Assembly (NCBI GenBank): GCA_035084275.1
Contig: CM068761.1
Coordinates: forward strand, 2,232,001 to 2,296,000
Length of the DNA: 64,000 bases
Source: Hydrolagus colliei
Lineage: Eukaryota
Reading direction: 5' to 3'
Below, in pieces: positions 1,606 through 46,846 of this stretch; position 1 is the first letter of the stretch, and the number at the start of each line of letters is the position of its first letter. Both the position numbers and the translations under genes were made by a program. The notes below the pieces were generated by a model, which was not told the origin of the DNA, did no database searches, and worked only from the letters and a program-made list of their open reading frames with translations.

Positions 1606-1765
1606 ATAATAATAATCCTTGCAATTGATGTAGCTTCTTATCGGGTTTGTCGAAGACTTCTCAAAGTGCTTCACAGAATATACTGTGAAGCAGATTGACT
1701 GTAAGCGCTCTGAGACGCCATCCGAATCAAAGTTGTTGTTGTTGTTGTACATTTTGCGGGCAAAC
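1606..1765 (-). mobile_element. SINE 3' fragment carrying an antisense L2-tail insertion (1704-1745)
   Basis: The SINE tail is interrupted at GACTGTA by AGCGCTCTGAGACGCCATCCG...(GTT)n and resumes TGTACATTTTGCGGGC. Confidence 0.8.
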
Positions 1766-3218
1766 ATACTGAAGTGCCAGGGCATGCTGCAAATGCTCCC
1801 TTTTTCGAATGAAATGTAACTTCTGGTCTGAATTTATCCGATGCCTTCAAAATGCCTACAGCACCGCAGCGGCGGTGAAGGACAGACAGAATTGTGAAGA
1901 CAATTCCTATATCATACATAACGATGGCTCTCGAGTGAATCGGAGACAGGCGCACCGTCTCCGGGGAGCTTCACTCATATGATTTACGATGTCGTCTAAA
2001 ATCTTTCGATTGGATTTACTGCCTTGCAGTTTACTGATATGTATGCATTATTCTACATACGGTATATATACAGTACATATAATTTAAACATAATACCTTT
2101 TTGTTTTACCCCTTCCCTTCCACTTGATTTATCTGCCCAGGCAACTGTTTGTGGGTGTTTTTTTTTAGGGAGTAGAGAGGTGGTCGCGAAATCTGCCGGT
2201 GTTGGCGTTGATGTCACTCTGACTGCTTGAGAGGAGGGTATTATTTCAGCATCAATGAGTTGATGTCGCAGGTTTAAACCTCCATCTCCCGGTAGATGTG
2301 TCTTAGCGTGCCTCGACATCCAGGAACTCGGTTGGATTTTTTTTTTTGCAAATAAAATCTTCTGGTAATCCTTTAAATGGAACTGAGTTTATTTTGGAAT
2401 TCAGCTATTAGCAGTATAATTGAATATTAGAACATAAGTGGCATATCTAGTGTGCACTCGTGGAGCGAAGCGTGGTTGCAACTGTAAAGGTTATTTTATA
2501 CAACAACGTGATTAACCTAAATCCTGTATTAGCCTACTTGATCAAAGTGTGCTACAAAGCAATGCTTTATAAATTGGGCCAAGCACCTGGAACCCTTAGA
2601 TAATCCTTAGTGTGTGACTGGTTTCCATAGACCTTATATCCACTGAATCTTTATAAATGACAAGTGTTTTAGGCTCTTATGTTATCTCTGATTTGTGTCA
2701 TTCTCTCGCTACCTAATTAGCGTCAAGAGATCAGCTATTCTCTGTTGTCAGTTGCAGCAGAGTTTTACAGATAAGATTACTGATGTTTTTCCCCCCCATT
2801 CCGGCTTTTTTTTTAAGAACCTTAGTTCAAAGCTCCGGGAATTGTCTCTGTTCCGCTTGAGGGAACTTTTTTTTAATTTAAAAAATCTTTGCTTTTCTTC
2901 TAAAGCCCCGGAGGGAGGGAGTGTGATGTGCACTTTTCACTTAGTACAATTTAATGTATTCCTTTTTACAGGTAGGCATTGCTTTTAGTTCAACTTTAAT
3001 TTTGAGTTTCATTTGAATTGTGGTTGAACTTGATTTGAATTTCAGTTGAAATTTGGGTCCTATTTTTGCCTTGTGGTTTAAGTGGACATTAAGGGACTTT
3101 TCTCCATAAATCTCTCCCTGTTATGTACATATGTATGTGGTGGGTGGGAGCTGTATGAAATTTGTTGCAAGACACGTATGCAATTTGTGTGGGAGAGGTT
3201 CACCTCTAAGTTAAGTAG

Positions 3219-3327
3219 TAATAATAATAATACTCCTTGCATTTGATATAGCACCTTATCACATGTTCGAGGCATCTCAAGAAGATTCACAGAATACTCT
3301 GTAAATTGAATTGGCTGAGTATTTTGC
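3219..3327 (-). mobile_element. SINE 3' tail fragment
   Basis: (TAA)n CCTTGCATTTGATATAGCACC...TTCACAGAATACTCTGTAAATTGAATTGGCTG. Confidence 0.8.
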
Positions 3328-3459
3328 AAAATAATACAAGATATATATATATATCCTGTATATAAATACAATATATCCTGGATATATACACCTGCATTAG
3401 GTGAGCTCTGTATTTGGAACTGGAATGTCGTCAATTGAAATTATCTGTATTATCTTTCA

Positions 3460-3990
3460 ATGAGGTGGGGGGGCATGGGAAGATGGTTGAAAGCGCAGTC
3501 AAAGAAGAAGATCCTGAAGTGGATCTTCAAATAGGGGAGAGAAGAGGTGAGTGTAAAGGGACTTCAGGAAGAGGTCCAGAGATAAGGGAAACTTACGCTG
3601 AAAGCCTTGTTCAGAACAGGAATGGTCCGAGAATCAAAGGTGGAGACAGCGAGGTAGTGTTGGGTGTCACCCCCATACATGTGTTTGTGGAAACTAACCT
3701 CATGTCTGCTGATTACATCGTTGAGTGGAAGTAGGTAGAAATTAAACAAGGAGGGAACCAAACAGAGCTCTGAAGAACGTTGCATTTGATGGTACATGAG
3801 TGGGAGGACAAGCCATTCGGAGATACAAAGTGGAAAGTTTAGGATAGTGAATCCGGGAGAGGACGGGAACTAGGAAGATGGAGCAGAGAGGAGGTGCTGA
3901 AGAAGGACACTATGATCGGAAGGCGGCAGAGAGATCAAGAAGAATGAGGAGGCAGAGAGAGTCCTAATCACAGAGAGGGAGGACATCATT
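3460..3990 (-). mobile_element. Old L2-type LINE 3' fragment
   Basis: Purine-rich tract resembling the antisense L2 copies at 9824 and 51281 (GCAGTCAAAGAAGAAGATC...GAGGTCCAGAG). Confidence 0.6.
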
Positions 3991-3994
3991 GGTG

Positions 3995-4080
3995 GTCTCA
4001 CCAGTTTAACATCTCATCCAAAAGATGACAATGCAGTACTGTATTAGTGTCTGTCGACATGAGTTCAAAGTCCAGGTATG
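3995..4080 (-). mobile_element. Deu-domain SINE relic (AmnSINE1/SacSINE1-like)
   Basis: AGTTTAACATCTCATCCAAAAGATGACAATGCAGTACTG resembles the antisense Deu domain as I recall it (GGTTTAACGTCTCATCCGAAAGAC...ACAGTGCAGCAC). Confidence 0.6.
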
Positions 4081-4636
4081 GGTCTTCCAATTGAGCTAGG
4101 CAGACACACTAAAATATATATATATATATATATCATTTCAATTCGGGATCAGGTGGTCTTAAATTGTGTGATTTGCAAACGGGTTTGGTTTCGTTAATTG
4201 GAATTTGCATTGTTCTAGTAAATCCCAGAACAAAGTCTGAAAAGGTCAGTCGCGCAAAGTAACAGGCTTTGTTGATTCGGGATTGGCACTTTGCTGGCCG
4301 TAAATTGTGCAAGCCGAGAAGTCACAACCAAAGATCCAATTAACTGCAACGGTAAATTGCCAAATTTTGCAAATTGGACTTCAGTGTCTGTGAGAACTGT
4401 CACAATTACTGTGAGTATCTCAACGATGCTAATATGTGTACAGATAAAAGTTCAAATGTGATTGAATGCATTATCATTATGGCTCAATTGGATTGTTCTC
4501 CACTCGTAGGGTTTTGTGTGAGAGGACAGTTGTGCTTGTGTTCAACTCAGCATGTAGAGCCAGTTAGGCACACAGTCCAGATTCAAGCCCTGTATTGTAT
4601 TACAGATAACAGGAGCTAATCCCGGGTTTAGATGGT

Positions 4637-4786
4637 GTTTGTGGGATACTGCTGGGCGCGATCGGCTGCCGCTTTTCGCCCACAAAACACACTTGTCAAT
4701 TCACTTTACAGTATATTCTGTGAAGCGCTTTGAAACATTGATAAGATGTGAAAAGCGCTATATCAAATGTAAGGATTATTATTATA
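4637..4786 (+). mobile_element. tRNA-derived SINE, 5'-truncated
   Basis: GTTTGTGGGATACTGCTG...TGTGAAGCGCTTTGAAAC...AGCGCTATATCAAATGTAAGGATTATTATT. Confidence 0.9.
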
Positions 4787-6163
4787 AATGAGATTACTTC
4801 CTAATATTGACTCTAGGTATCCAATACTGTTACGTCATTCTCAGGAAATAAAGAATGTTATTAGAACTTGACTATAGAATATAACACCCTCTGATGGGTA
4901 CTATAATTTGTTTTTAAAATGCCTGGTGTAGTTGTTTTCCCATAAGGGTTCAGACAGAATTGTTTGGTTTAAACTGTTGGTAATTGTAATGAGCTGGTCA
5001 GATTGTTTGCATTACTGGTTTCATTTACAGAGGGTTGCATGAGAATTGAGCTCTAGCATCTGGAAACATACTTGTTTTCTTTTTTGTTCAAAATTAATTA
5101 TAAAACAATGCAAAGATCTACAGGAATGTGCTAAATTCACAAGCATTCCTTAGCATGTTATTGGCATTATGAGCATTTTCCCAATGTTTAGATGTCTCTG
5201 CATTGAAAGACTGCTCCAAAAATCTTGTGGTCCTTTGGTTAATTATCACTCCCACCCCTATTGTTCCTCTAAATCAAGAGTTCTCTCTCTCCCTTTCTCT
5301 CTGCAAATGTCTTTGAGATTACCTTATGTGAAAAGCAAATGATAAGATATTGTAATTTTTTATTTGAGTTGGGGTAATTTACGTATAAAATATAATATTA
5401 TAGTTTGCAGTTCTTCACAATGAAGCTTTATGTGTAACTGCGTGTGAGCCTTGGTTTTGTTAATTGCTGAAACTTGAAGGTTCTCATTTTACAAGCTCGG
5501 ATTTTCCTACATAATTAGAATACGAAATGGAGTAAAACTGCATTTAATCTGATTGTTATGGTTAAAACATTTAGCAAAGGCTAATACAAATATATGGTAC
5601 AAGAATGGATTACAATATGATATTGTTCTGCATTTATAAAATATATGGTAATACTATTCCTGTCGACCAGCAGGAAACTTTTGAGAGCTTTGCTATATTG
5701 AAATGGACAGGTTATTATACTAATATGTTAATACTAGCTCCTCGTATTCACCACATAAGAAGATGGGTGCAACTGAGGAATGTCCTTCATCCAGATTTGA
5801 ACGTAATCAGTGGAATAATCTACAGATTCTACACATCTGATTGCTCACAATTTCAGGCGATCAGTGAAACAGATAATGGTGTTAGCTGCCTTAAGACTTT
5901 TGAAGGAACACATCCAGAATGCATTTAACGCAGACTATTGCTGTTAAATTCAACTTGTCATGAGTGTGTATTCAAATATTAATGACTGGTCCTTCTGCTT
6001 TGAAGTTTGCTCTCCAATTTAGTGGAATTTCCAGTTTATTAGTTATGTTTTGGTGGCAATAAAATGTAAGCTAATAATGGTAATACAGTATATGCCAGAT
6101 CAATGATATTTCATTGTACTTAAAAGTTCCCGAGTGTTTTAAAAAAACTATAATTATCCTTGT

Positions 6164-6288
6164 ATTTCGCCCACAAATATACAGTCAATTCACTTTACAG
6201 TACAGTATATTCTGTGAAGCGCTTTGAGACGTCTAGATGACGTGAAAAGCGCGATATCAAATGCAAGGCGTATTATTATATTATTATT
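6164..6288 (+). mobile_element. tRNA-derived SINE, 3' fragment
   Basis: TTTCGCCCACAAATATACAGTCAATTCAC...GCGCTTTGAGACGTCTAG...(ATT)n. Confidence 0.9.
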
Positions 6289-6294
6289 GCATTG

Positions 6295-6495
6295 GATGTA
6301 GCACACCTGCATCCCACACCAAACGCCACTGAAATGCTCAAACACAGCTTTGTTAACATCTGACTGGGCTTTTCAGATTACTCCTTACAATCCCCAGTTC
6401 CATCATCGTCAGCTTGCTAACTGCTCCAAACCTGGGTCACTCGCAACCTCACCCACAATAGACTCTGCCTATCATCACTCCAGTCCCTTGCTCGG
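6295..6495 (+). mobile_element. Degenerate L2 ORF2 fragment
   Basis: Residual similarity to the L2 HAFVTSRLDYSN...HITPVL coding stretch (CACAGCTTTGTTAACATCTGACTGGGC...ATCACTCCAGTCCCTTG). Confidence 0.5.
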
Positions 6496-9044
6496 GTACC
6501 TTTCATTTTCTAATAACAAGTGATCGTGTAATCCTTTTTAGTAGTTGTTAATTAATAGCACCTCTAATTCTCCTGTTAATGAGTTTATTGAGATGTGGTT
6601 AGCGCAGCACACAAATTAGACACCATTGGGATCAAAAGCAGGATATTGTAACTTTGGCTAGACAGCCAAAAACCAAATCATATTATCTGGGTTCATTTTT
6701 TTTAATGTAAGTTATTGCTTTAAATATTGTTCGGCTTTATTTTCCAGGCTTTGAGATTATACAAGCATAAACGTATCATTCCATTACTCCTTTAGATTTG
6801 GGTCTGGAATAGATTCCACAATATGTCATGTAAATACAGTATATAGTATGTACGTCTATTACCTCACAGACGCAATGCCAGTAATGAGAGCTTCACATTG
6901 TAACAGATCCTTTTAGTTATTGAATTAAAAAAATCTGTTTTGCCAATTAAAAAGACACCCACACAAATATACCCTAAAGTACTGAGTTCAGTAAAAAACG
7001 CACTGCATTTGTCACTATGGCATACTGTTCCTGTCATTTAACTGTAATAAACCCCTAGTTTGGGTGCAGAGCGTGGAAAAATAGAAGCTGTTGGCTCTTA
7101 ATGTGAGCACTCTGGCAACGTATATGCAACCAATCTGTGGGTACCAAGAGCCAGTGATATTTGTAGTGTGTTTGCGGTTGTAACATTCTCTTGGGGGGGG
7201 AGGGGGGGTTGGAATTACTGTTTAAATCACCCAACATTTGTCGTCATGGCTACTGTCTGTGTATGCCCCACCATCCCGAAGTGGATTGGAATTTTGCCAC
7301 TGTTTATTCTCCATTTAATGCCCGTCAAATGAGACCAAGTGATATTCTCACCTCTCTGCAAAGTGAACAATAAATTGTGTGAACGCAGAATCAATATCTA
7401 ACTGTAGTTAGCGTGCTCTGTCTTGTGATGCCTTTGAAACGACAATCTTGTAGGAGACAAAGCACTCCACCAGCGATGATGCTGCATCAAGGAGATTCTT
7501 GTGTGATTCCATCATGTGAAAGGCTTGCCACACACAATCGGGTGTGATATGCAATCTCAAAGTGATGAACCAGTAGGTCAAACCACCTTTTCATTTCCCC
7601 GACGTTTCTTATATCCCATTTATGTGTGGTTTCACCCACTAGAAATGCTGCGAAATGCCTATTTTATTCACCTGATTGCGTTTGGACTCTGTATAGCAAT
7701 CTCTGATTAACAAGGCCTCAGTCTCCCTGTTAATTTGAATGAAGAAAACAATAGTTTGGGAATTGGGTTTAGTTTTAACCCAATATTTTACTAATTTATG
7801 CGTAGATCTTTCTCAACAAAAAAAGTAACAAGACTCTTTCACCTGGGCAGCTTTTCACCTACAGGGGCATTGCCAAAGAGATATTTATTTCTCGCTCTGT
7901 CAAACAATAGAAAATATATAAAACACAAATACTGTTGCATATTCCCATCTACCAGGAATTAAGAGAGAATGACGATCTAGTATCATTATTGTTTCTCGAT
8001 GTATTGTATTTAGCAATGATTGTATTTTTGTGAGTATGTTTCTTGTATATGGCAAAACTGAAACCCTGTCGCCATGTGCCTTATCAGCCGGCCTACCATA
8101 AAGACTCTCTTCTGCAATCAAAAAGGCAAAGACAACAATGTGAGTCTCTGCAATGGTCTGTTAAATTGAGTTACAAATGTGAAACTCTCGGCACTAAGAA
8201 TAATTCTGCTGAAGGATGCTTAGTTTGTTTTTGAATTACTATTAATAGGCCACTTTAATTGTCTGAGAACCTCTTTACATGAAGATATTTCTTGAAATCA
8301 CCTCGAGGCTTGACATTTCTTTAAAAAATAATGCGGGTGGCTCTGACAGATTGTAGCTCTGATACAGTATATTGCAGTGTCTTAATTAGATCACCATAGA
8401 TTTCCTTTCAAAGCAACAATATTTCAGAAATGTAAACACTATTAATGTGCACAATTTTAACAGTATGTGAGTGCTGCAAAATCATCCACAATGCAGTCCA
8501 CTTGTGGATTCTGTTGCATAGAATATGTATGATTGAGTAATGTCACTATATGGGCTATTTTGGACCACTCTGCTTTCATCTATTTTGTTTTGTCTACTGT
8601 AATGAAAGATCCAATATTCCCTAATCCTAACAATGTGCTCACTGGTTTCGGGTCAAATTTATAATCTTCAAAGTCATACAAACTAGCAATTAATCTCTGT
8701 TCATTGATCTTGATGCAAAGTAAGATCCTTCTGAGAAGCGATTGCTGCAGCAAAATCAAACTCTGTAGCAAAAACACATAGAATAAAAATTATCGAAATC
8801 TGGAAAGCTTACAAATATAATGTTTCTACATAATTCAAAAAAAACTCAGAAGTTTGGCATACATACAACATGAGGCAATGTAACGTTATTAGTGAGTTCT
8901 CTTGGTAAATTTTTCAGAGATTATAATAAACTCTCAATCTGAAATTTTGCAATCTCATGTAAAGATCACCAGTCTGTAAATCCCTTCATGCTCTAGTACC
9001 TCCTCTGATCTACCCCTCCATCATTAGTACTTAGAATTAATTCT

Positions 9045-9175
9045 ACCGGGGAAGCAAAGGTATTAAGCCATACGGAGAAAAGGTGGGGAGATGAGATCAG
9101 AAGCTTTTCCATAAATAATAAGTTGGTGAATCAGACTCGATGGACAGAATGTTCTGCATCTATTCTTCTGTTCTA
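9045..9175 (+). mobile_element. CR1-type 3' tail relic
   Basis: GGTATTAAGCCATACGGAGAAAAGGTGGG...CAGACTCGATGGACAGAATG...TTCTTCTGTTCTAT resembles a CR1 3' UTR end. Confidence 0.55.
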
Positions 9176-9823
9176 TTTATTGGAAAGAGGAAAACAAGAG
9201 GAAATATTGTAACTTTAAAACAAAGTATCATTTCAAATGTATTAAACTTGTACTAAAAAAGAGTGGAAAGGGAGAAGGTAGCCAAAATAACAAAACTAAC
9301 AGAATTATATTTGTGTAGTGCCTGTAGTGCCGTGGGAAGCACATCCCAAGGCACCGAAAATAGTCTCAACTCCACAGAGAGGTAAATAATTGAGTGAACT
9401 TTACCGAAGGATTCCTTTATTTTGAAGCCTCTACTGCTTTCAAAACTCTTTAATGAAGGGAAGAGGAAGAGCGAAACCGACAGCTGGAAATTTTTTATCA
9501 ATCCAAGTAACAACAGATCCCAATGTAGCTTGGCCAGAGTCCAGATTGCAATCAATAAGACTAATAGTGAAGGGAAATGTTGTGGACTCGTATCTGCTCA
9601 GAGCTAAAGTAATACTGTCCAAACTTATTTAGAATACAAACATGTTCAGCCATTGGAGAGAAAGTAGAGTGTAAAATGTTCTCTGCTGAGGTTAACTTGA
9701 GTCTTTAAGGTAAAAGGACACCCTGTGTCACACAGTCAACTTGTGATTACTAGTTGATTTACACTTCTTTTTTTAGCAGGTAACTAAATAGCTAAAACTA
9801 TTATTGAAAGAGGCAGATCATTA

Positions 9824-10385
9824 AACAACAACAAGAGCAACTTTGATATAGCGCCCTCCATGCCGGACGGCGTCTCAGAGCGCTTCACAGTAGCGGATCC
9901 CGGGACCGAGCCAGGGGGCAGGGGTAGGAAGGTGACCAAAGGTGCGGTCAAAGAGAAAGGTATTTAGCTGTGATCTGAAACAGGGAAAAGAGGGGGCGAG
10001 GCGAAGGGAGTGAGGAAGGGAGTTCCAGAGCCTCGGGGCTTAGTGGCTGAAGGAATGGCCGCCGAGGGTGGAGTGGAGGATTCGGGGCGGATATGGAGGA
10101 GGCCAGACCCGGTGTAGCGAAGGCAGCGGGTGCTGGTTCTAGGAGAGAGGAGATCAGAAAATTAGGGGGGTGCAGAGGAGTGTGGGGTTTGAAAACTAGG
10201 GTGAGAATCTTAAAGTCGATCCTCTCAGGGACAGGGAGCCAGTGAAGTCTGGCAAGGACTGGGGTAATGGGGGAGTGAAGTTTGGTGCGGGTGAGTATGC
10301 TGACGGCAGAGTTTTGAATCAGCTAGATTTTGTGGATTGTGGTGGAGGGAAGACCGGCGAGGAGGGTGTTGCAATAGTCCAGCTT
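9824..10385 (-). mobile_element. L2 LINE 3' end (ORF2 C-terminus + 3' UTR), 5'-truncated
   Basis: The minus strand translates KLDYCNTLLAGLP...IQNSAVSILTR...PITPVLARLHWLPVPERIDFKILTLVFK with a stop and frameshift. Tail TGTGAAGCGCTCTGAGACGCCGTCCGGCATGGAGGGCGCTATAT...(GTT)n. Confidence 0.92.
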
Positions 10386-11651
10386 CTAAATGGTTAAACG
10401 AAGGAAGTAAAGTTTAAAAATATCACCACAGTAGGTTAAACGTTTTTTTTTAATTGCCAATTCTATTTGAAGTCAATAGCAGTCATTATGTTGTGATTAA
10501 GTATAGTAAAATAATGTGCCTTTCTCGATATCTGCAATCCTCATTTCAACTAAAATAGTGGGAGTACAAGTTTTGGTTACAATTAGTTAAAACTTTTTAT
10601 CCTTGAATGAATATATTGGAGACAAACAAGATTTTAGTTATGATCTCGGAAGACAGAACCCAAGGTAGACTGATTTGACTGTGAATGTAATGACAGAATA
10701 GACCATCGATCAAATTAGAACGAAACATTACACTGGATTGTTAATCCAAACAGATAACATTGAAGAAGACAATCGTGTTTATTCTAAGAGAAATTGAATC
10801 AACCGACTGATGATCACTTGACGTGTGAAACGTGTGATTTTTCTGTAAACCAAACGTGACTTAAAGCAGTTACTAATCATTTTGTAACCACAAATATTGG
10901 AACTTATTGGATGATAGAACTTGTACTACTACAGATGCTCTCACATTCTCTATTGTGATGTGTAGATATGGTACGTTATTCAATTATAAGCACACACTGA
11001 AAGATTTGTCACATGATGAAGAATGATGTATGACTTTGAAATATTATCTTACCGTGCTGAGAGATACAAATGATGATTTAATTCCACTGTACCCTGCAAT
11101 CCACATTTCTATCTCTCTCATTCAGTGCTTGAACCTCAGATATAAATTTTGGGAGTCGTAGGATTTGCAAATCAAGGAGTTGATGACTTTCCATCTTTAG
11201 GTTCAATTACGATTGCTATGAACACAAATCAAAATAGCAATAAAATTCAACTATGACCATGTCATTTAAATGGGGGTGAGAAAGAAGGGCAGAAATCATG
11301 ATACTTATCCTTTTGAACCATAAACGTCAGCATGCAGAAGCATCACTCAATACTTGCTGGCGTACTCCATGTAGTATTGGCAAGGGAATTCTGTGACTTT
11401 ACCATTCAGAATGTGCCAGGTAAAGCGATCTCTGGCTATTATGCTTGGCTAAATCACTTGTAACGCTTCCAAACCTGTACAGCAACCCCACCTACAGGAT
11501 ACCAGTGTAATTCTGAGAAATTCTCCCAACACGCACAATCAACAAGTCAATGAGTTTAATTTAAACTATTTTGAACCTCCTGTTGAATGAGGCACATCAC
11601 CAAGTGGATCCCCTATATAGCAGAGTTCTGTCACACGTCAAACATATACAG

Positions 11652-11809
11652 TAATAATAATAATAATCCTTACATTTATCTAGCGCTTTCCACATCTTAT
11701 CGACGTCTCAAAGCGCTTCACAGAATACAACAACATCCCAAGGTTGGGACCAGAGCAGGAGGGAGGGGTCATGGTTGGGGGAAGGAAAGTAGGAAAATTG
11801 ACTGTATAT
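11652..11809 (-). mobile_element. SINE 3' tail with an internal L2-like replacement segment (11728-11793)
   Basis: SINE tail to CACAGAATA, then a G-rich segment like the L2 subterminal region, then AAATTGACTGTATAT. Confidence 0.7.
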
Positions 11810-11904
11810 ATATCAACCATGATTGAAATTAATATATTCCAATAAGAGTGTCCGTTTCCCTCCCCCCTAATATGCCTATGACCAGGCTGATCCTGGCAAA
11901 ACAT

Positions 11905-12185
11905 TGGGAGGATGTACCAAAGCGCTCATCAGTCAAGGGTCGGGACCCGACCCCAGTGGAGGTGTAGGGTAAGGAGAGGGGAGGATGGCAGAAGGCACGA
12001 CCAAAGAGGAGGGTCTTGAGACCCGGCCTTGAAGGAGACGAGGGAGGAAACGAGACGAAGGGATTGCGGGATGGAGTTCTAATGTGTGGGGGCAGAGAGG
12101 CTGAGAGCCAGGCCACCGATGGTAGGTCGAGTCGGGCGGTAGACACGGGGCAGAACGGAGCCCACTGAATGGAGGGGACGGGCAG
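11905..12185 (-). mobile_element. L2-type LINE 3' relic
   Basis: CAAAGCGCTC...GACCAAAGAGGAGGGTCTTGAG...GGAGTTC...CCACCGATGGT, similar to the other antisense L2 copies. Confidence 0.65.
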
Positions 12186-12199
12186 GTTCATTGGGAGAG

Positions 12200-12587
12200 T
12201 CTCTACGACTACCTCTGCGACTTCCTAACCACCTACCAACCTGCCCACCCCCCTCCGCTCAGCAGGCTCAGGCCAGCTCCACGTCTCCCGACCCACCAGC
12301 CCCAACATTGGCGGGGTGAGCCTTCGGCCACTCTAACCCTCCCCTCCCCCCACTCCCCTTCCCGACCTCTGGATCTCCATCCCGCAGTCCCTCTGCCTCG
12401 CCCCTCCCCGTCCCCTCCCTGGCCCTCCCTTTCAAGTCCCGCCTCAAGACCATCCTTGTCGACTGGTCCCCATCGGTCATCCCAAATTTCGTTCCTCCAT
12501 CCCCGACCCCAGGTCAGATCTGAGACCGATGAAACAATGGCTACCCAATCGCTTTACCTGTCGTGAAAGGCGTTGTTGTTGTTGTTG
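12200..12587 (+). mobile_element. L2-type LINE 3' relic
   Basis: Reads YLCDFLTTYQPAHPLRSAGSGQLHVSR..NIGG (L2 ORF2 end), then TTCAAGTCCCGCCTCAAGACC and a (GTT)n tail at 12572-12587. Confidence 0.7.
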
Positions 12588-12589
12588 AC

Positions 12590-13470
12590 ACCAACCAACC
12601 GCCGCGCCTGCGCAGATTGTTCGATGGGTGTCTAGTGGTGGTGGTGGTGGGGGGGGGTTTGCGCGTGTTGCATGGTGGGGGGTGTAGTTCGTCCCGGGGT
12701 CAGTCAGTCAGTCAATCGGTCGGTGGCAGCGGGAGAGGTGGGGAGGTGTGCGCTTGCGCACTGGCGCCAGTCGGGAATCGAGTTGCGCGCGGAGCGGGAG
12801 GGCGGCGTCGCCGAGCGCGCGCGCGCGCGCATGTGTGTGCGCGTGTTGCCGCTGTCGGTTGCCACACAGAACATTCGTTCCTTGCCGTCGCCTCAGCGAG
12901 GAGCTCGAGCTCTGGTGCCTGGTAACGGACGGCGGCGGCGGCGTCGTCGTCGTCGCCCGCGTCGTTCGCGTCCCCCTCAGCAACACAGCGATAGCAACTA
13001 CAAGTACAACTACAGCAACAGTCGAGGCAGCAGGAGGAGACGTACACAGCTTTTTCCCTCAGCAAGACAGCCCGGTCAAGCCACCGGAGGAGAGATTTAT
13101 TAGTACAGCTGGGAGCCAGGAGTGGAAAGGGGGGAAGGTGGGGAGGGAGTGGGGGGGGGGGGGCGAGAATTATGCCGCTGTGCCCCTGGAACGGCACCGA
13201 TTTGAGGAGAAGCCGGAGCCGCAGCTCTTACGATTCGAAATGATGCCGTTTGCTCTGAGGGAGAGGAGCTGAGGAGGGGGTTGGGTGGGATTGTTGGGGT
13301 GGCAGGAGGCAGAGGGCAGGCGAGGCGAGCCTGTCAAGGCAGTCAGTCAGTATGTGCAGCCGCTGCTACTGCTGCCGAGCTGCTCCGGGTTCCCATCCGA
13401 CCTCTTGATGCTACACTATTTTGCTATACAAATATGATGAAATGGCAGCCCAGGAAGAAGGTAAGCCAGA
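12590..13470 (+). promoter_or_regulatory. CpG-island promoter / 5' end of an unidentified gene
   Basis: Very high GC and CpG density in a CpG-depleted background. NRF1-like GCGCCTGCGC (~12604) and TGCGCTTGCGCA (12749-12760), (GC)8 tract, RFX-like GTGCCTGGTAAC (~12915), (CGG)/(CGT) repeats. Confidence 0.85.
13442..13460 (+). CDS. Candidate coding end of first exon (MAAQEE+G, phase 1; alternative ATG at 13434 gives MMKWQPRKK, phase 0); may instead be a non-coding exon
   Basis: Strong Kozak context gaaATGG at 13442, followed by a consensus donor AAG|GTAAGC at 13460/13461 and downstream G-runs. Product not recognised. Confidence 0.4.
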
Positions 13471-13869
13471 GACGGGAGGTGGGGGGTGGGGGGGGGGGGG
13501 GGGGGGTAAACTGAACAAAAACACACTCACAAGGATAAGTCAAGATAATCTTGTGTGTGGGGAGAGGGGTCTCTCACAAGCCCTAGGGTGGGATGGGGAT
13601 GGTAGGGGGGGGGGGGGGGGGGGGGGAGCTGTGTTGCTTGCTGGTTTGACACTTTTATTTTTTCTCTCTCTCTCTCTGCCTGAAAAGTGAATGTGTTGGA
13701 ATCGAGCTCGCTTTTGGCTTTTCGTTTTTTTTTTTAACGATCGCAAACCCAACTCCACACACACAGACACACACAGACACACACTCAAGCAAACACACTT
13801 AACGATCTGGGATGCAATGACAGTGATCCAATGCTGCGAAAAACTTTACACTCTCTTCTCTCATATACT

Positions 13870-13874
<5 letters not shown>

Positions 13875-13915
<41 letters not shown>

Positions 13916-13920
13916 TATAT
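13875..13920. repeat. (TA)n/(CA)n microsatellite
   Basis: Read directly from the sequence. Confidence 0.95.
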
Positions 13921-16900
13921 TTTCACGGAATTGAAGCATTTCCTTGTTCCAAATACTGTCTGTTCGAGCCCGCTGGTTCAGGAATGTAGCACTCGTTTAA
14001 TTATGTGTGTTGAACACCTTTAAGTATTAAAAGCCTGGCCAGTGCCCCCCCCACTCCTCCTCACCCCCCCCCCCCCCCCCCCCCCCCACAGCCCCTGGTC
14101 TGGGGTGAGATGTCAGATAGTACATTTAAACCTGAAATATTTCTGTGCCAACACATCGGACTGGTGGGTGGGTTTGGGTGTACGTGTAAAATTCTGTGCA
14201 AAAAAACAAGTGAGCAGAATCAATGCAAAACAGTGCTCAACGTGGCCATTGGGGCTCTGTAGATAATATGTGGTTATCGGGGGAAACTCGAACACTTTTG
14301 AGTGTAAAATCGTTATTATCTTTTTATATCGAGTTTTTTTTCCCCCTGCCCCCCCCCCCAAAAAAAAACAACGTTTCGAAACATTTTTTTTTGCTGCTGA
14401 GGGTTGTAATCGACAATCCTCACTTGGACATTGGCAAACAGATTCTTCCCGTTTGATTTGCAGCCAGATTATGTATATGCATCGGAAAGAAAGCCGCACC
14501 ATTGTTTGAGAGTTTCTCACCCGCTACTTCTTAAATATTAATGAAATAATATATAAAGTTGACATTTTATCGGTTGCTGGAATGGCTTGTACCCCGGGCT
14601 GTGTGAGCCCTTGCGTTTCCCAAGAGCTGATATACTGTATTTCCTTGGCTGTATATGGGTCCCACTGGGTGGGTGGGGTGGGGGGGGGGGGGGGTAATGA
14701 AGTTTTAAAGCAGGGTCGGAAAAAGTACATTCAGCGGAAAACAAAATGAAAAAGAGATATAAAGCTATTTGAAAAATGTGGCACCGCAGAGGTACATTTC
14801 AATGACAGTCGTTTGGAAGCGAAAGAAGTTGCAAGAGATTCCGAGTCATTCCGAACGTGATTTGTTCTACACATGGGAATGTCCTGAGATGAAAATCCCG
14901 TTAAAATTGACGATTTTTGTTTTTGAAAAAAAACAGATGTTCGATAATCTATAGTTTTATACAGCGCTTATTTGATTATAAGGTACAATTTGTGATTAGT
15001 GTCTCGGAGCTACAATATGACTAAATCGTTTTTTTTTTAAAAAAAGTTATAAATGATTCCAGGGTATACAAAGTGATTTATTTCCTCCCTCTTTTGGCAA
15101 AGTCTTGTTTTTAGTAATGTGCACCCTGTAGTATTTTTTACTCAAACAGAATCTGCCTCCAACATTTGAGACATTAAGTACTTATGCATATCGAGTGTCT
15201 GGGTAGATTAGGGAAATATTGTACTTTGAGGTGAAATTGAAAAAAAAATCCATGCATTTGCATTCTCAATAGTGAATTTTCTAATCCTCTAATCGTTTAA
15301 TATGAATAATATTGACTTCCCTGCCTCCCTGACACAAGTTACCCCATCAGTTTTTAGTATACACCCTGTTATATTCGCCATATGAAATGTTACATTTCTG
15401 CATCATCGCTGTGGCATTTGCTGCCGTGATCGACGCGGTTCTTGTGGTTTTAAGTAAAGAGGAGTCCCCAGAGGGTTAAGATATGACGTATTTAATAGAG
15501 ATCAGCTGCTTGGAAAGATTTGGCATCTTTACTGTGCGGAATAGAGTTCGGTGAGAAATGGCTATGAATGCTCAAGTATTCAGGCCCAGGCCGTGTTCGT
15601 GGCTGTAAGGAGTACTGGAAGTGCAGAGCTGAAATTTACGAGTCGACAATAAAAGGCAGGAGAAAATAGAGGCATTTGAATAGATTTCTCTGCTTTCAAA
15701 ACAAAAGATTGATGATGTTCCTTCTTCCTGCGTTAAAAGGCATCGTACAATTCCAATGTTAAAAAGATGCTGAGCTTGGGCCATTTTATCTTCCTGTTAT
15801 TTTGTGTGTCCTTTCCAGTTCACCACCACAACAGGAGTGCTGAAAAAAGAATGTGAAATCTGGCAAGCTCTTATGTTTTTCGGTTGATCTGTACATCAAG
15901 ATGAACTAAATTTATCACATTCAATAAAGGTCACACACCAGGGAGAAGATTTTATCTTTCTGGAGCAGAATTCATTCAATTTATTTATATTTCAGGAACT
16001 ATTTGACTGGAAACTTTATTTCAGATGAATAAAGGAGCAGATTGTGAAATATTGATACCCACACACTAGATGTCACTACTGCATTAAGTGAGTTGAATCC
16101 CCAGGGTGGAATTACCATCTGCCACTACCAACATTACATACCCACTCCCATAAACAATCCCTTATTTATCAAATTTGTTGAATAGACTCTTGTTTTCTTT
16201 TGTTGTTGCATGAGCTTTGCAAATATCTTCCCACCGGGAAAACAACTGAATAGCCATTGAATATAAGAATAGGGGTGAAGGGAGATTGTCAACAAAAAAA
16301 TATTTTTAATCAACTGGTTATAATTTGTGTCATCTAATTTTGACCTGAATTCTTCAGATGCGAAATTTGTGGATATTAGTGATGAGAATTAGCGGGATTT
16401 TGTTTTTGGTCAGCCGGTGTCTGCTCCATGCTGAAACCAATTGAGTATCCACATTAGACTGAGAGCTCCAACAATGTATGCCATAAATGCATAGAGGTTT
16501 CCTAGTGTCTGAAATGGAATACTTTCTCCCTGGATCTAATTCTAGAGAGTATGGACAGCAATAGATTGGAGAGAGCCAAGGCTCGGGCACCTAGAAGGTG
16601 TGTGGAGTGCAAGTTAAACCACATAGCTTGCCATTGAAAGCTTTCTCTGGGAAGCTTCCTGTTGATTGTCCAGTTGAGCACCCTGCCCAATAGGACTTTC
16701 AAGGGTAACAGGAGTTGATTGCGAGGAATTTCTGCCCCAGTGAAGAGCCAGATGACTGGTGTGGGGTGGTTGGCAGTATCTTAGCATCTGACATTCTGTT
16801 GTCCAATCATGACATCTTGGAGCCAGCTGAGCTGGAATGGGGGTTGAATGCAGGCAGGACTGACAATGCTTAAGTGGAAACATCTTGCTTATGTTTGAAC

Positions 16901-17144
16901 GTGTACTCCATACATACATGTACATTTATTCTTGTGAATACACCATTCAAGTAACCTATTGAAATTGTGGTTGAACTTGTGAACTGCATCTTGGACCTTT
17001 GACCCACAGTGAAATGAAAAGCAATGAAAAGTAGCATTGAGTGACTATCTTTGGACAGCAGGTTTTCTGCTTGGGAGTATTGGGGGGAATTTCTACGATT
17101 GGTTCATTTTGGGGGTTAAACATTTTCTGACTTCAAAGAGTTTA

Positions 17145-17425
17145 ATTCCTGTAGTGTAGTGATTAGTGGGCTTGCGTTATAAGACTTGGGTTCGTTTCCC
17201 GGGTGGGGTAAACCTTAGGTACGTTTCCAAACTCCACACACACATACATACCTCTGTTTATCCAGCCATGAGTAGGAACTTCCTTGTTGGATCACTTCCT
17301 GGGGTTATTAATCCCTCATAAAATATAATAATAATTGGATCACTCACTCTACAACTGTTGTGGGGTACTGCTGTGTGGCTGCTAATTTCACTCACAGAAT
17401 GCACAGTCACTACATTTTACAGTAT
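17145..17425 (+). mobile_element. Older, longer tRNA-headed SINE variant; tail remnant resumes at ~17751-17800
   Basis: Diverged head CCTGTAGTGTAGTGATTAG...GGTTCGTTTCCCGG. Extra central segment CTCTGTTTATCCAGCCATGAGTAGGAAC. Body to TTTACAGTAT. Confidence 0.7.
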
Positions 17426-17709
17426 ATAATAATCCTTGCATTTGATATTGTGCTTTTCACGTCTTCTAGACGACTCAAAGTGCTTCACAGAATATACTGT
17501 AAAGTAAATTGACTGTATATTTGTTGTCGAAATGTGGCAGCCAAATTGCGCACAGCAACATTCCACAAACAGTCATGGATTGAAATGGCCAATTTTTTTT
17601 TCAAGAGATTATTATCAGGCATTGGAGTAAGGACACTTGCCCAAGGTTTCGCCCTGCCTGGAATTGAACCCACTTTTAAGGTGAGTGTTCTTACCATTGA
17701 GCTACAGTA
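17426..17709 (-). mobile_element. tRNA-derived SINE, near full length, nested in the older SINE
   Basis: Tail ATAATAATCCTTGCATTTG through head ...CCATTGAGCTACAG. Confidence 0.9.
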
Positions 17710-19202
17710 CTTTCTTAGGTGGGTTGTGACTTCCTTTTCTCTAATTCTATAGTGTGTGAAGTAATTTGAAATGTCTCAACGATATGATGAGGTGCTGTAA
17801 GATTTATGCTGAATGAAAAATCCAGTCCCTTTGTTTAAAGATGTTTTCTGCTTGTCCCATCTATTTAGCTGGATGTGTCCTTTCTGTTTCTTGGGTAACA
17901 ATGAGGAGGGGACTTGGTCTCAACATTTTGCCCACAGTGTTCAACAGATCTGAGAAAACAGTGTTTTGCCATTCACAGATTTTAATTTTTCTCTGCCCAA
18001 CGTATAGGTAAATATTTGATCTGTGCTTGGCATTTTCTCAATTTATTTAACTAGAGTTCTGTGCACCATCATATGCTGCCATATTTTGCATTTGCATACT
18101 AATCAATGTCATAATATATTTGTTTCAACCATTTTACTTAAATAGTTTAAGTACGCTGTGAATAGTTGTTGGGTTGGAGCTAGGATTTGGGGAAATGTGA
18201 ATGGAGGAAAGATGTTATACAGAAGCATTAAACCCTTATCATTACAGTATTTCTCCAGTGTTCAGGATTCACGCTTCCCACTATCTCTCCCATTTAATCC
18301 TGCTGTTAGCTAAGACTTCAAATAAACTCAGGAAAATGGTGTGTCATATATTAGCAAATCATTTGTATGCAGACATCATCTTTATATATGGTTTTTAGAC
18401 CGAATATTGGCAAACTGTGCCCACCTTTTATGAAAGATGGAAGAGAAATTGAGTGAATGGGAGAGAGGCAAAGCTCCCTCTCTAATCTTTCTACTATTCA
18501 TGTAAAATGGGGTGTAAATTGATCCATATTTGGAATTATTGTATGGGCATTCACAACTAACCAAGTACATTCCTGCCCAATCAGTGGATCTCAATGTTGG
18601 CCTGATGATTTAAAGTGATGTGGGTTTAATTTCTGCTGTTTCTATTCTTGTTTTAATCCGTCATGTATTTGCCACAGAAGAATATAAAAAATTTAAACAC
18701 ACTTGCCGTTGAAAGGCTGAGATTTAATACCACTCGCTAATATGGAACTTTTATCATGCAGCATTTTAAAATGTTCACATAGTGAATAACTTTGAACAAC
18801 AGCTATCCCGCTAATGGCAATCAGTGAATGATCAATTGTTTTTCATGTGAACATTGATGAGGTAAGAATGTTGCCCTGGACATCCTTTATCAGTTCTCAA
18901 CAGACAGATTCTGATCAGTTTATTCAAAATTCAACCCTAAAATATTTCGTTTGATTTCAGCACTGAGAAGGCTGATCTGAAGAAAGAGACATTTTCAGCC
19001 CCAAAAAAGGCCAATTGGTCCAAGTCGGTGCTACTGCGAATACTATAAATCATTTTTTAATATCAATCCTGTTTTCCAGCTCTTTCCCCATAATGCCCTT
19101 TTTTAAAAAAAAATACAAGGCCAAATGAAAAAGAAACCTCTTGCTTGCACCAAATGTGGGGCAGGTACTTGGGAGTTTGGGTTTGTCAGAAGTTGGCCAG
19201 AC

Positions 19203-19333
19203 CATGACTGTTTGTAGGACACAGTGCTATGTGCAATTGGCTACTGGGTTTCACTCACAAATATACAGTCAATTTACTTTACAGTATATTCTGTGAAGCA
19301 CTTTGAGACATTTAGAAGACGTGAAAATGACAC
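19203..19333 (+). mobile_element. tRNA-derived SINE, 5'-truncated
   Basis: CATGACTGTTTGTAGGACAC...CACAAATATACAGTCAATTTACTTTACAG...GAAGACGTGAAAA. Confidence 0.88.
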
Positions 19334-19401
19334 TGAATGGTTTTTCAAATGTAAGTTCACCTGCCATAGCAGATTGACTTCTGGTATTTCGCCAAAAATG
19401 A

Positions 19402-19762
19402 AATAATAATAATCCTTGCATTTGATCTAGCACTTTTTACATCTTCTGGACATATCAAAGCGCTTTACAGAATATACTGTAAAGTGAATTGGCTGTATGA
19501 AGCGCTCTGAGACGCTGCCTGGCGTGGAGGGCACTATATAAATCTAAGTTGTACATATGTGGGCCAAATCTGGCAGTCATTTGCATACAGCAGTGTTCCA
19601 CAAACAGTCGTGGATTGAAATTATCAATTTATTATTCATTTTTTGAGGGATTATTATTAGGCGTGTGGAGTAAGAAAACTTCCCCAACGTTTCACCCTAC
19701 CTGATAGTGAAACCAAATCTCTTGCTTGTAAAGTGAGTGCTCTAACCACTGAGCTACGGGAC
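19402..19762 (-). mobile_element. tRNA-derived SINE, full length, with an antisense L2-tail insertion (19498-19549)
   Basis: Complete tail-to-head match. Insert TGAAGCGCTCTGAGACGCTGCCTGGCGTGGAGGGCACTATATAAATCTAAGT flanked by TGTA. Confidence 0.9.
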
Positions 19763-22689: not shown

Positions 22690-22822
22690 GCTTCAACATG
22701 TTTACGGCCACCTCCGCCCAACACCCTGCCCCTGGCTTGGAGTCCAGGCTCCGCCACTGTTAAGCACTTTGAGATGCTACCCGGTGTGGAGTTTACTATG
22801 TAAGTGGAAGTTGTTGTTGTAG
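22690..22822 (+). mobile_element. L2 3' tail fragment
   Basis: CCCTGCCCCTGGCTTGG...ACTGTTAAGCACTTTGAGATGC...AAGTTGTTGTTG. Confidence 0.75.
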
Positions 22823-41361: not shown

Positions 41362-44300
41362 ATAAGAGGACTGTGCCGTTACTGACTGAAAGTTCACATT
41401 TGGGACAACGGCAATTTATATTCAGTGGGAATTTTCAAGGAATTTGCGTTTTTTCAGGCTTACGTACAGATTTCACCGTGGTTCCAAAAATAACCTTAAA
41501 TTGAAAAAATATTTTATTTCCCTTTCATTCCTGAACCGTCGTAAAGTTTGTTTTGAGTCAGCGGTGTACAGTAAACTCTTGAGTTCATTACCATCTGGTA
41601 CTGTGCTGCACATGTATTTATCCACGTTAAAGGGGCACAGTCTTGCAACAGACCTTTTTATTATTTGGGAAGGAGATTAGCACAGAGAGCTTGTGAAGAT
41701 TACTGTGTTGTGCCACAGGCAAATGTCCCAATTTGAAAAAAAAACACTGAAAAACACTGAAAAAAAAACATTGACGTTATTTTTGCAAACAACCAAAAAA
41801 AAGGGTTTGCGAAGCATTCAAAAGAAGTTGATGCCTCTAAAATCCTGAACGTATAGAAATTATGTTCATCGCATCAGAATAACCAGTATTTGAGGGCAGG
41901 GCGAGTTAAGGTAGCATTGGAAGGGCCAGTGTTAATTTTCGCAGTGTATCAAGTCCAAAGAGCCAGACAACAGATGTCTCATGGAGATGGTAACCTCTCT
42001 ACATACAAATAATTTCCGGTGTTTATGTGGTGTAGAAGTGCCTAAACATACGCCTCCCTGTTTTTATGTCCGGTGTTATTATGAGGGATTTAAAAGAGAG
42101 AGTATCGGAGATTGGGGCATGGTGGCTGAAGGCTAATGGTGGGACAGAATGAGTGAGGAACAAGCAATTGAACAGTGTATGAGTAGGAGAAAGAGCTGGA
42201 GAAATGATTTCGGGCGAGGCATGATTGTGAAGAGAGTTGTGGGTACGCTGAGCCAGTGAGAATGAGATTAACGTGTTTGCAGAGCCTGTGGTGTGGCAGA
42301 GGACTGTGGCAGAGGCTAATAAATGTTGGGAGTTATGAAGGAACTTACATGACCGAACTGAAAATTATGGAGGTGCTATGTTTAAAACCGTTGAACCCAT
42401 TCAGCCGAGGGGGGTGGCTGAGTGTCACTGAGCAAACGTGTATCCTTGGGAGATGGGGAAAAAAATGAAGATTCTGGAAAGTAAAACCTTCAGGAACCTC
42501 GTCTCTAGATTTTAGTGGTTAAAATACCTTGTTGAGTTGACGAAAATAGTTCTTCGTTACCCCAAAGGCAAGTCCATTTTGATTAAGTCTCGCTTTTCCC
42601 AGGCGTATCGGGTCTCCTGCTTTTAGTGTCTAAATCTGGCAAGAGAGGCTGATATGGGGGATAGAACGGTGTGATTTCCATCTGTCTTGCTACATTTCCC
42701 CGAAACGTAGAGGAATTACAATGGGCATTAGCATGTGCTGGCAGTGCGAAAGGTATGTGTAGTGCGTAGAGCATGTGTGCACACCATATGGAAACTGGAC
42801 AGGCTTGCATTCAGTACACGGAAACTGGCCAGTGCACAGGGAACGATATGGCTGAGTGTGCACATGCACTGTGAAGCTGGCTATCCGGCTCTGGCTCACC
42901 AGAATTTTATGGATCCCAATCACCACATTATAACTATACAGGACAATATAACCATAAGAAAATACAGGCGATGTCTCTTTTTCAAAAAATCTAACATTTT
43001 TGTAGTCATTCAGTCATTCAGAGAAATAAGTTTGAGATGTATTCAGTTGTCACTTGAACGTACAGTGTATTCCAATCGCGCCCCCCCCCCCCCCCCCCCC
43101 CCCGGCCGCCTCATAAATCTTTTCAAGCCCATTGTACACATCTGAAGTCTTATTTGATTGGGATTATTCAAATAATTGGATGAAATGCTCTTGAAAAACC
43201 CCCAATATCAACGCAAGTTGCTGTTGTTGTCCCTGGAAAAGGTGATGTAAATCAGAGTAAGAAGGAAAGCGCATAAAAGTTAGATTGGGGAACACTGGGG
43301 AGCGTGAGATCTTGGTGTTTTGGTCTGAGTGCCTGATCACATCTGCCTATTGAGTCATTCCACTTTGGCCCGTGCGCTTTTTCTAGAACAAAACCTTTCC
43401 AATGAGAAGAACCGAAAATTAGCACTCGGATATGTATTACACAGTAACAACTGTTGTAGGGTGAATGAATTATCGTCGAGTCGAATAACATCTGTAAAGA
43501 ATTAACTGTATTCCATCAATCTTGTTTGTTCATTATATTGTATGTAATCAATCCAGTGTATAACTCCAAGCAAGTTTTATAATTTGGGGGTAAATTCTCT
43601 ACAAGTCACACCTGGTATGCAATCTGTATTTAAAGGACATATAAAAGCCCCACTGGAATCTAAACCTGATACAGTGAGTCTTTTTTGTTGGCTATTTGCT
43701 TCCTCCCACGTCTATTTCCTTTGTACCTAGCACCAAAAACTACTGACTCGAACATGATTCGATTGTCCCATCTCTGCTGAGTTGTTCACGTGAGTCTAGA
43801 CAGTGAGTATCAGCGAGTTAATTTCAATGCGGGGACCCGAAGTTCTACATCCTGTTAATGCTTGAGTGCTTAATTGTCTTGAAGCGCTCTGGGACGCTAC
43901 CCTGTAAAAAGGCACCATATCAATGCAAGTTGTTGTTTAAATTGAAGATTGTGCAGAATTGTGGAAGATTCTTAAATTCAGTCAAAATTCAGTCAAAGAC
44001 AACAAATAATAATATGTATATAATGTGTGCATTTATATAGTATCTTTGATGTTGGGGGTAGCCATTACTGAACCATACTGGTTCCAAATTAGACAGGATT
44101 GAAGAATTTTCATAGAATTCGGCAGGATACTAAATTTTAAATTAAAATAAATCTGCATCCTCTAGCAGAAGTCACTGATTTTCATGCCCCAATACAGAGG
44201 GTTCCAAAGGCCAATTTCTGTCCCAAATAAGGTCGCCCAAATGAGCACAAGACTTGAGAATTATACCTTTAGCCATTCTAGTGTGTATGATTCAGTATCA

Positions 44301-46620: not shown

Positions 46621-46846
46621 CTACGACAACAGCAACTTGCGTTTATATAGCGCCTTCCCTCCACGCCAGACGGCGTCTCAGAGCGCTTCACAATAGCAGA
46701 GCCCGAGGCCGAGCCAGGGGGAGGGGGAAGGTGACCCGGTCTAACGGAAAGGTCCTCGGGCGCGACCTGAAGATGGGAAAGGAGGGGCTGAGGTGAAGGG
46801 ATCGAGGGAGGGAGTTCCAGAGTGTCGGGCTGTAGTGGCTGAAGAA
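46621..46846 (-). mobile_element. L2 3' end fragment
   Basis: CAACAGCAACTTGCGTTTATATAGCGCC...CGGCGTCTCAGAGCGCTTCAC...GGGAGTTCCAGAG...TAGTGGCTGAAG. Confidence 0.88.

Follow-up and report, generated by a model that had tools for sequence, protein, structure and literature searches.

In human DNA, the nesting of transposable elements within one another is marked by hotspots specific in position and orientation, which are the rule in the study by Levy, Schwartz and Ast; of the insertion types that cluster, 82% were unevenly distributed, and some hotspots are not accounted for by the known target word (PMC2836564). In crocodilians, Tx1-Mar LINEs and SINEU are reported to insert preferentially in Mariner-N4_AMi (PMC4494074). 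The target duplications of L2 elements peak at 3-5 bp, with extra 5' bases that are often derived from the flank (PMC4245944), and microhomology occurs at about 80% of the 3' junctions of ZfL2-2 (PMC2666801). The DeuSINEs SacSINE1 and LmeSINE1, and likewise SINE2-1_CM, from cartilaginous fish or coelacanth, combine a tRNA-derived head, a central domain and a LINE-derived tail (PMC3747384, PMC4824008).

The locus discussed here lies in a 64,000-nucleotide stretch of Hydrolagus colliei DNA (the window), where two minus-strand copies of a SINE of about 335 nt with a tRNA-like head each carry an antisense LINE 3' end at the same internal site. This focal site is most likely a hotspot of the ordinary kind, and neither a novel composite element nor a device for self-limitation. 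There is a strong case that separate 5'-truncated, GTT-tailed LINEs entered an abundant SINE at its TG|TATATTT word, which these LINEs favour genome-wide, probably by ordinary target-primed reverse transcription. As with the human hotspots, one family shows preferred positions and orientations within another, but the human study concerns mostly Alu, LTR and DNA elements, whereas here an L2-like GTT-tailed LINE enters a SINE with a homologous tail (PMC2836564). The likeness to ZfL2-1 and ZfL2-2 extends to short duplications, occasional target deletions, microhomology with the 3' tail repeat and 5' extras copied from the flank; in the extracts of the ZfL2 accounts, a preference for TA steps or for TG|TA does not appear (PMC4245944, PMC2666801), and the strong share of 40-80-nt stubs, a trait of the families of this genome, sets them apart from both elements as described there. 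As with Tx1-Mar, a non-LTR element is found repeatedly within another mobile element; unlike Tx1-Mar, which favours its host element (PMC4494074), these LINEs have fewer ends in the SINE overall than expected, and a small share of them sits at the focal site. A concentration of the Tx1-Mar type, at a single site of a single host element, was not seen among 251 unselected LINE ends, 11 of which lie in the SINE and none at the site. The SINE itself is likened by organization to the DeuSINEs and SINE2-1_CM named above. A literature search that covered few subscription papers returned none on the focal SINE site or on the target word of these LINEs.

Table 1. Nested and free elements in the window (positions are those of the whole stretch)
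Feature	Position	Strand	Remarks
SINE copy 1, tail-side part	1606..1703	-	profile positions 237-331
Left TGTA of duplication, copy 1	1700..1703	+	right copy 1746-1749, whose TG overlaps the GTT tail
Insert 1, family-A LINE 3' stub	1704..1745	+	antisense to SINE; internal deletion; 5 GTT units
Short rest of SINE copy 1	1746..1765	-	element 5'-truncated, without tRNA-like head
Free family-A LINE 3' end	9843..9887	-	outside SINE
Third nested piece, family-B LINE fragment	11728..11793	-	sense; other SINE site; host 11655-11809
SINE copy 2, tail-side part	19402..19497	-	
Left TGTA of duplication, copy 2	19494..19497	+	right copy 19550-19553
Insert 2, family-A LINE 3' stub	19498..19549	+	antisense to SINE; 1 GTT unit
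SINE copy 2 body and tRNA-like head	19550..19762	-	damaged B-box region, internal T4
Similar LINE tail	22762..22814	+	
Similar LINE tail	43880..43933	+	
Similar LINE tail	46633..46690	-	
Similar LINE tail	51296..51357	-	
Similar LINE tail	60200..60230	+	

The two inserts, 42 and 52 nt long, match free LINE ends elsewhere in the window. Just as an earlier, sequence-only reading of the window had described, each is bracketed by a pair of TGTA words, the right-hand one directly followed by C. That reading placed both at the consensus position GACTGTA; the site is indeed shared, but copy 2 reads GGCTGTA. The inserts differ in sequence, the sole identical block in a local alignment being 15 nt. Their hosts are 76% identical across the tail-side part, 79% and 90% identical to the window SINE profile, and set in outer flanks unrelated to each other; copy 1 retains about 17 nt beyond the profile positions given in Table 1.

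In five further SINE copies of the window the tRNA-like head scores above the Rfam RF00005 gathering score, and the head of copy 2 can be aligned; an intact tRNA was not found by ARAGORN. The SINE may resemble the Deu-domain SINEs. Its tail is homologous to those of the LINEs (39 of 50 columns against family A, 21 of 25 against family B) but ends in ATT repeats instead of the GTT of the LINE tails; the earlier description of the SINE as L2's "own parasite" stands as a suggestion. The LINEs are presumably L2-like, a label taken over from the sequence-only reading, and they display the hallmarks of non-LTR elements: the 3' end is constant and carries short repeats, the 5' end is truncated to varying extents, and the target duplication is short. 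One family-B copy, L249, encodes a reverse transcriptase (Pfam RVT_1, E 1.2e-32), and a family-A fragment with no Pfam match of its own (L048) is 64% identical to the L249 ORF over 103 aa. Stubs dominate across the genome, with a median of 67 nt and 61% of 247 LINE ends at 80 nt or less, though where a family has no long reference its lengths may come out too low. Since stubs prevail genome-wide, a tail-only length is not peculiar to the SINE site.

Recurrence at the SINE site is beyond chance. Genome-wide, 104 exact junctions were found there and none for a reversed control, and 29 of 30 loci drawn from exact-junction matches fall in the SINE. These 29 comprise 12 family-A and 17 family-B inserts, ranging in length between 35 nt and about 1.5 kb (15 of them 90 nt or less), with target duplications of 0-8 nt beyond TG, some small deletions, and extra 5' bases that are copies of the flank. 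The inserts are independent 5'-truncated LINE insertions, many separate landings at one spot, because two LINE families are involved, lengths, duplications and tail lengths vary, and the hosts are scattered among empty copies. A tree of hosts was built from 15 nested copies, without window copy 1 and the long inserts, and from 30 empty ones (162 columns, bootstrap not settled); the label changes 11 times there against a shuffled mean of 12.8, and a single clade of nested hosts is rejected on the same 45-copy tree (p-AU 0.016).

Fill rates along the SINE were obtained from whole-genome exact junctions divided by the number of empty 12-mers, itself an extrapolation from 950 kb of unselected sequence. 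The focal site is filled at 1.51 per 1000 sites (1.11-2.07). LINE tails also occupy five further SINE sites, in both orientations: the rate is 0.48 per 1000 at an antisense ACTG|TA site 16 nt away (nearer the tail), 0.46 at antisense site 103, 0.80 at an antisense TTG|CA site, 0.42 at sense site 257 and 0.71 at a sense head site, while the average SINE position stands at 0.10; the six tested sites were picked as candidate words, not randomly. About 275 exact junctions fall on about 190,000 sites, and an exact junction is present at about 0.15% of sites. The 11 unselected ends nested in the SINE compare with 26 expected from its 10.5% of bases (p 0.0006), a depletion to which LINE copies that predate the SINE may contribute; the 11 ends lie at 11 different positions, six sense and five antisense.

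The landing spot is most likely recurrent because it bears a short word that these LINEs favour throughout the genome: after the tails of the 251 unselected LINE ends, TA is enriched 3.4-fold and TTA 8.4-fold. The antisense orientation follows from the best word lying on that strand, and the insert is complementary to the SINE tail as a side effect of the homology between LINE and SINE tails. Sequence-directed L2 targeting, one of the alternatives first put forward, thus holds in the weak sense of a genome-wide preference for a short target word; an aim at the SINE as such finds no support, since LINE tails occur there at further sites and in sense orientation too, and LINE ends are depleted in it overall. 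Mechanistically, the endonuclease would prefer TA steps and the nicked strand could pair with the GUU tail through TG(T) microhomology; reverse transcription may then often halt near the foot of the 3' stem-loop, which would leave a 40-70-nt stub and a short duplication.

That said, the short word alone leaves part of the pattern unaccounted for. In a motif-matched comparison planned before its loci were classified, 157 TG|TATATTT words were sampled (122 within the SINE, 35 outside), and the 37 matched stubs in the SINE and five outside gave an odds ratio of 2.1 (95% CI 0.75-7.4, p 0.19), or 1.5 once two doubtful stubs were added. With upstream bases ignored, the SINE site is 5.3-fold (3.0-9.9) fuller than non-SINE N|TATATTT; the ratio becomes 2.9 (1.1-9.1) with automated upstream calls (5/21 TG, including chance TAT matches; 7/15 when read by eye) and all SINE fills assigned to TG. 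Four of the five non-SINE matched stubs lie at TTG|TA; among matched non-SINE sites without TTG, 1-2 stubs stand against an expectation of 8.8 (post hoc, p 0.0015-0.007). The site 16 nt away, which has identical upstream bases, shows a 3-fold lower rate, or about 2-fold for family B alone. The post-hoc split suggests a residual excess, with a possible 2-3-fold bias beyond the word.

It is extremely unlikely that the inserts trace back to one captured LINE tail that was later amplified as a composite SINE subfamily. Such an origin would fit the 3' junction common to many loci and the C after the site in both window copies, but not the two LINE families and the dozens of distinct 5' junctions and tail lengths, nor the window pair, which share so little insert sequence in hosts so diverged; among the loci examined, the only near-identical inserts were duplicates, either adjacent to each other (L293/L294) or on small contigs (L323 and two such contigs). 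The C variant accounts for four exact junctions against 104, and its rate of 0.77 per 1000 (0.2-2.8) is no excess over the T form, so the C is not a hallmark. Where the sequence-only reading looked to monophyly with identical junctions as the sign of a subfamily, the junctions differ and one clade is rejected; the variable 5' truncations and tail lengths at one site that it associated with targeting are present among the loci examined. We consider an even spread of insertions over the SINE, with the two window cases a pure coincidence, very improbable. The scatter of the unselected nested ends agrees with such a spread, as do the 2-26 windows with two such nestings expected in the genome (the probability for one 64-kb window being 1.5e-4 to 1.6e-3), yet the per-site rates contradict it, with the focal site about 15-fold above the mean position and 2-3.5-fold above the five other tested sites. 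Hardly credible, too, is the proposal that the LINE targets its SINE parasite and silences it through RNA fold-back over the tail. Fold-back of the insert is predicted in both copies (pairing probability 0.38-0.46), in competition with the tail hairpin, but copy 1 lacks the head that bears the promoter, and in copy 2 the B-box region is damaged and a T4 lies within the element. About half of the inserts are long and not tail-only, and 185 ORF2 ends yielded no established LINE that finishes in the ATT tail of the SINE. A self-limiting role finds no support, because LINE ends are depleted in the SINE, scattered and in both orientations, and the share of copies hit is well below 1%.

A rather unlikely addition to the word preference is that the wider SINE context lifts insertion about 3-fold, whether through pairing of the homologous tail some 30 nt away with LINE RNA or cDNA, through the imperfect inverted repeat around the site, or through a longer enzyme consensus. 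The difference from the same-context site 16 nt away and the shortfall of non-TTG sites outside the SINE speak for it, as does family A, whose tail is closest to that of the SINE and which makes up 41% of fills at the focal site against 21% of unselected ends (p 0.019). The pre-planned matched test, however, is not significant, and the sense arm of the inverted repeat, nearer the tail, is filled at a plain rate (0.42 per 1000) comparable to site 103, a lack of boost that speaks against a hairpin or cruciform as the cause. Moreover, family A contributes just 1 of 20 fills at the site 16 nt nearer the tail, but it accounts for 9 of 19 at sense site 257 and for 3 of 6 at the head site, remote from the tail; element age, or a word preference particular to the family, would fit this. 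More doubtful still is the narrower idea that a LINE with no other specificity has an about 3-fold higher rate of insertion beside DNA homologous to its own RNA tail, with the tail RNA or new cDNA pairing with the SINE tail about 30 nt from the nick in a weak form of homology-assisted target choice.

The preference of these LINEs for their target word is thus read against a SINE that serves as a ruler of known pre-insertion sequence, to which we attach modest weight. It yields a first per-site estimate for GTT-tailed LINEs, namely a TA step with TG or TTG microhomology, with families A and B differing. Nested insertions at the site recur independently and are therefore poor phylogenetic markers. 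If it is true that the residual 2-3-fold excess depends on the neighbouring homologous tail, it would represent homology-assisted LINE targeting, of specialist interest. Quasi-palindrome correction of the SINE hairpin was considered separately and rejected: the double variant that turned up among selected loci occurs 0 times against 90 in unselected DNA and the single variants three and two times, which makes it compatible with chance. The window also holds a third nested LINE piece, in sense orientation (Table 1), which the first reading had overlooked.

Two window copies of the abundant ~335-nt SINE, which has a tRNA-like head and an ATT-repeat tail, carry antisense stubs (5'-truncated, tail-only copies) of the GTT-tailed LINE family A at the same word, TG/TATATTT (site 238; hereafter the site). 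The coordinates, TGTA duplications, insert lengths and C after the site claimed in the sequence-only reading all held on re-reading the window. Both hosts are minus-strand copies of this SINE, whose profile matches 38 times in the window (a few of these hits are LINE tails); in five other copies there the head matches the Rfam tRNA family. The SINE presumably has a region like the Deu domain of DeuSINEs, families of which are named in PMC3747384 and PMC4824008; DeuSINE, like L2 for the LINEs, is a provisional label here. The inserts match free GTT-tailed LINE 3' ends elsewhere in the window. They share only a 15-nt block, have five GTT units (insert 1, which also has an internal deletion) and one (insert 2), and lie in hosts that are 76% identical, with unrelated outer flanks.

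LINE pieces associated with SINE copies in the window
Feature	Host SINE	Position	Length (nt)	Orientation	Remarks
Insert 1, family A	1606-1765	between TGTA 1700-1703 and 1746-1749	42	antisense	C after right TGTA
Insert 2, family A	19402-19762	between TGTA 19494-19497 and 19550-19553	52	antisense	C after right TGTA
Third nested piece, family B	fragment 11655-11809	11728-11793	66	sense	other SINE site; ~12 target bases missing
Family-A LINE 3' end		within 46633-46981, which spans both elements	~200		head to head with truncated SINE; no SINE remainder past LINE tail

The inserts at the site are independent insertions. Across the 1.0-Gb assembly containing the window there are 104 exact 3' junctions at the site (reversed control, 0), and 29 of 30 fetched loci lie within this SINE; a 5'-junction pattern gave 82 matches, and of 29 distinct loci read, 10 had an antisense stub either at the site or close to it. 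The 29 SINE-site loci comprise 12 of family A and 17 of family B, insert lengths run from 35 nt to about 1.5 kb (<=90 nt in 15), and at exact-junction loci there are duplications, small deletions of target bases, and 5' extra bases taken over from the flank. A composite SINE subfamily amplified after capture, one option of the earlier reading, is refuted by the two LINE families, the varied lengths and duplications, and the rejection of a single clade of nested hosts (p-AU 0.016, on a tree whose bootstrap had not settled). That tree held 30 empty hosts and 15 nested ones of 47 candidates, restricted to inserts that were short and had a good left flank, and excluding window copy 1; it needed 11 label changes against a shuffled mean of 12.8, and 77 of 500 shuffles were equally low. 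Nor did the C after the site prove to be a shared mark, the C variant having 4 junctions and a rate no higher than that of the usual form. Longer LINE copies encode a reverse transcriptase (RVT_1, E 1.2e-32), and a family-A fragment aligned to the RVT_1-bearing ORF at 64%. At loci L054, L055, L056, L057, L313 and L318 the upstream SINE flank is repeated once or several times as 5' extra bases, as expected of template jumps during 5' joining. Another locus, L314 (G000:C3 near 9019188), has two tandem LINE tails at the same SINE site. There the initial insertion restores the TG/TATATT word, which the second appears to have used.

The same exact-junction count was made at five other SINE sites, picked as candidate words, and each count was divided by the number of empty 12-mers, as extrapolated to the genome from 95 unselected stretches of 10 kb. 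By these rates the site ranks first among the six without being unique, and both orientations occur; an average strand position has 0.10 fills (LINE junctions) per 1000. A recognisable LINE tail was present in most, not all, of the comparison loci read (20, 20, 6, 6 and 6, in table order).

Exact LINE junctions at six SINE sites
Site	Junctions	Per 1000 sites	Orientation
The site	104	1.51	antisense
16 nt away (TG/TAAAG)	62	0.48	antisense
257	49	0.42	sense
Head	38	0.71	sense
103	32	0.46	antisense
TTG/CA	95	0.80	antisense

LINE ends have a genome-wide TA bias, and the SINE holds a large share of the best word. In 251 unselected LINE ends, TA directly after the tail is enriched 3.4-fold and TTA 8.4-fold. 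Eleven of these ends are nested in the SINE, each at a different position (6 sense, 5 antisense) and none at the site; as the SINE makes up 10.5% of bases, this is fewer than expected (p 0.0006), a depletion to which LINE copies older than the SINE may partly contribute. The commonest form of LINE copy is the stub (247 copies from the 95 stretches: median length 67 nt, <=80 nt in 61%), GTT-tailed copies of <=80 nt start close to the base of the 3' stem-loop, and the same stretches extrapolate to ~265,000 such ends in the genome.

Within the sample, 122 of 157 TG/TATATTT words are in the SINE. Junctions with a TATATTT flank number 299 genome-wide (control, 39); of the 100 listed ones, 70 read as DNA and 30 judged from listed text, 54 belong to the SINE site, 30 are LINE ends outside the SINE and 16 fall in neither class, and totals after last-letter correction of the pattern are about 275 for the SINE site versus about 115 non-SINE. 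The fill excess at the SINE site is 5.3-fold (3.0-9.9) with upstream bases ignored and 2.9-fold (1.1-9.1) for TG sites only, by automated calls. Searching directly for stubs that have a TG/TAT duplication gave 65 rows (control, 7), 51 read as DNA and 14 judged from text; after removal of duplicates, of rows that contained no LINE and of those in which the TGTAT did not represent the duplication, 37 stubs remained in the SINE and 5 outside (7 counting two doubtful ones), an odds ratio of 2.1 (0.75-7.4, p 0.19), or 1.5 with the doubtful stubs. Four of the five outside stubs are at TTG/TA; at other upstream bases outside the SINE, 8.8 were expected and 1-2 observed (post hoc). Family A makes up 41% at the site versus 21% of unselected ends (p 0.019). 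It accounts for 9 of 19 at sense site 257, so that its share at these two TATATT-flanked sites (L046-L095) is 41-47%, versus 1 of 17 typed at the TG/TAAAG site (L096-L115), which suggests a family-specific target preference. The TTG/TA skew and the family-A excess thus speak against a pure word preference and for a possible residual 2-3-fold excess at the SINE site.

By analogy with established L2 biology, the LINE would nick near a TA step, the nicked TG(T) would prime by microhomology with the GUU tail, and an early stop near the 3' stem-loop would leave a short duplication. According to PMC4245944, L2 target duplications peak at 3-5 bp and 5' extra bases are often flank-derived; PMC2666801 gives 3' microhomology at about 80% of ZfL2-2 junctions. 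Recurrent LINE landing at the SINE site is real and is another case of a known kind, working like the nesting hotspots, specific in position and orientation, that PMC2836564 describes as usual; these LINEs differ from target-specific ones such as Tx1-Mar (PMC4494074). A search of mainly open-access literature listed no publication on this SINE insertion site or on the target word of this LINE family. A genome with about 275-900 fills would be expected to contain 2-26 windows of 64 kb that hold two. The remaining option of the earlier reading, sequence-directed L2 targeting of its own parasite, holds in the weak sense of a short-word preference that acts across the genome. Homology-assisted targeting by the LINE, a different idea, is in our estimation very improbable.

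The earlier reading also proposed that the insert could fold back on the SINE's own tail. Such pairing is indeed predicted (probability 0.38-0.46), because the LINE and SINE tails are homologous (39/50 columns); as to the host copies, copy 1 has no head, and in copy 2 the B-box region is damaged and there is an internal T4. The numbers do not support the suggested self-limiting mechanism: an exact junction is present at about 0.15% of sites, which is not enough to restrain a family with 591 profile matches in 950 kb. Among 185 ORF2 ends, classed as 119 B, 36 A, 24 none and 6 whose best match was an adjacent SINE tail, no LINE could be shown to end in the SINE's own ATT tail, so no partner LINE emerged from this set. 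At the TTG/CA site of one SINE tail (L242, G000:C1 near 34801474) there is a bare GTT-type repeat without a LINE body, which may have come from an aborted insertion or from slippage. At L011, L015, L018, L020, L023 and L027-L029 the imperfect inverted repeat before the SINE tail has become perfect, a form that is rare in unselected DNA (0 vs 90) and that two changes by chance could explain.
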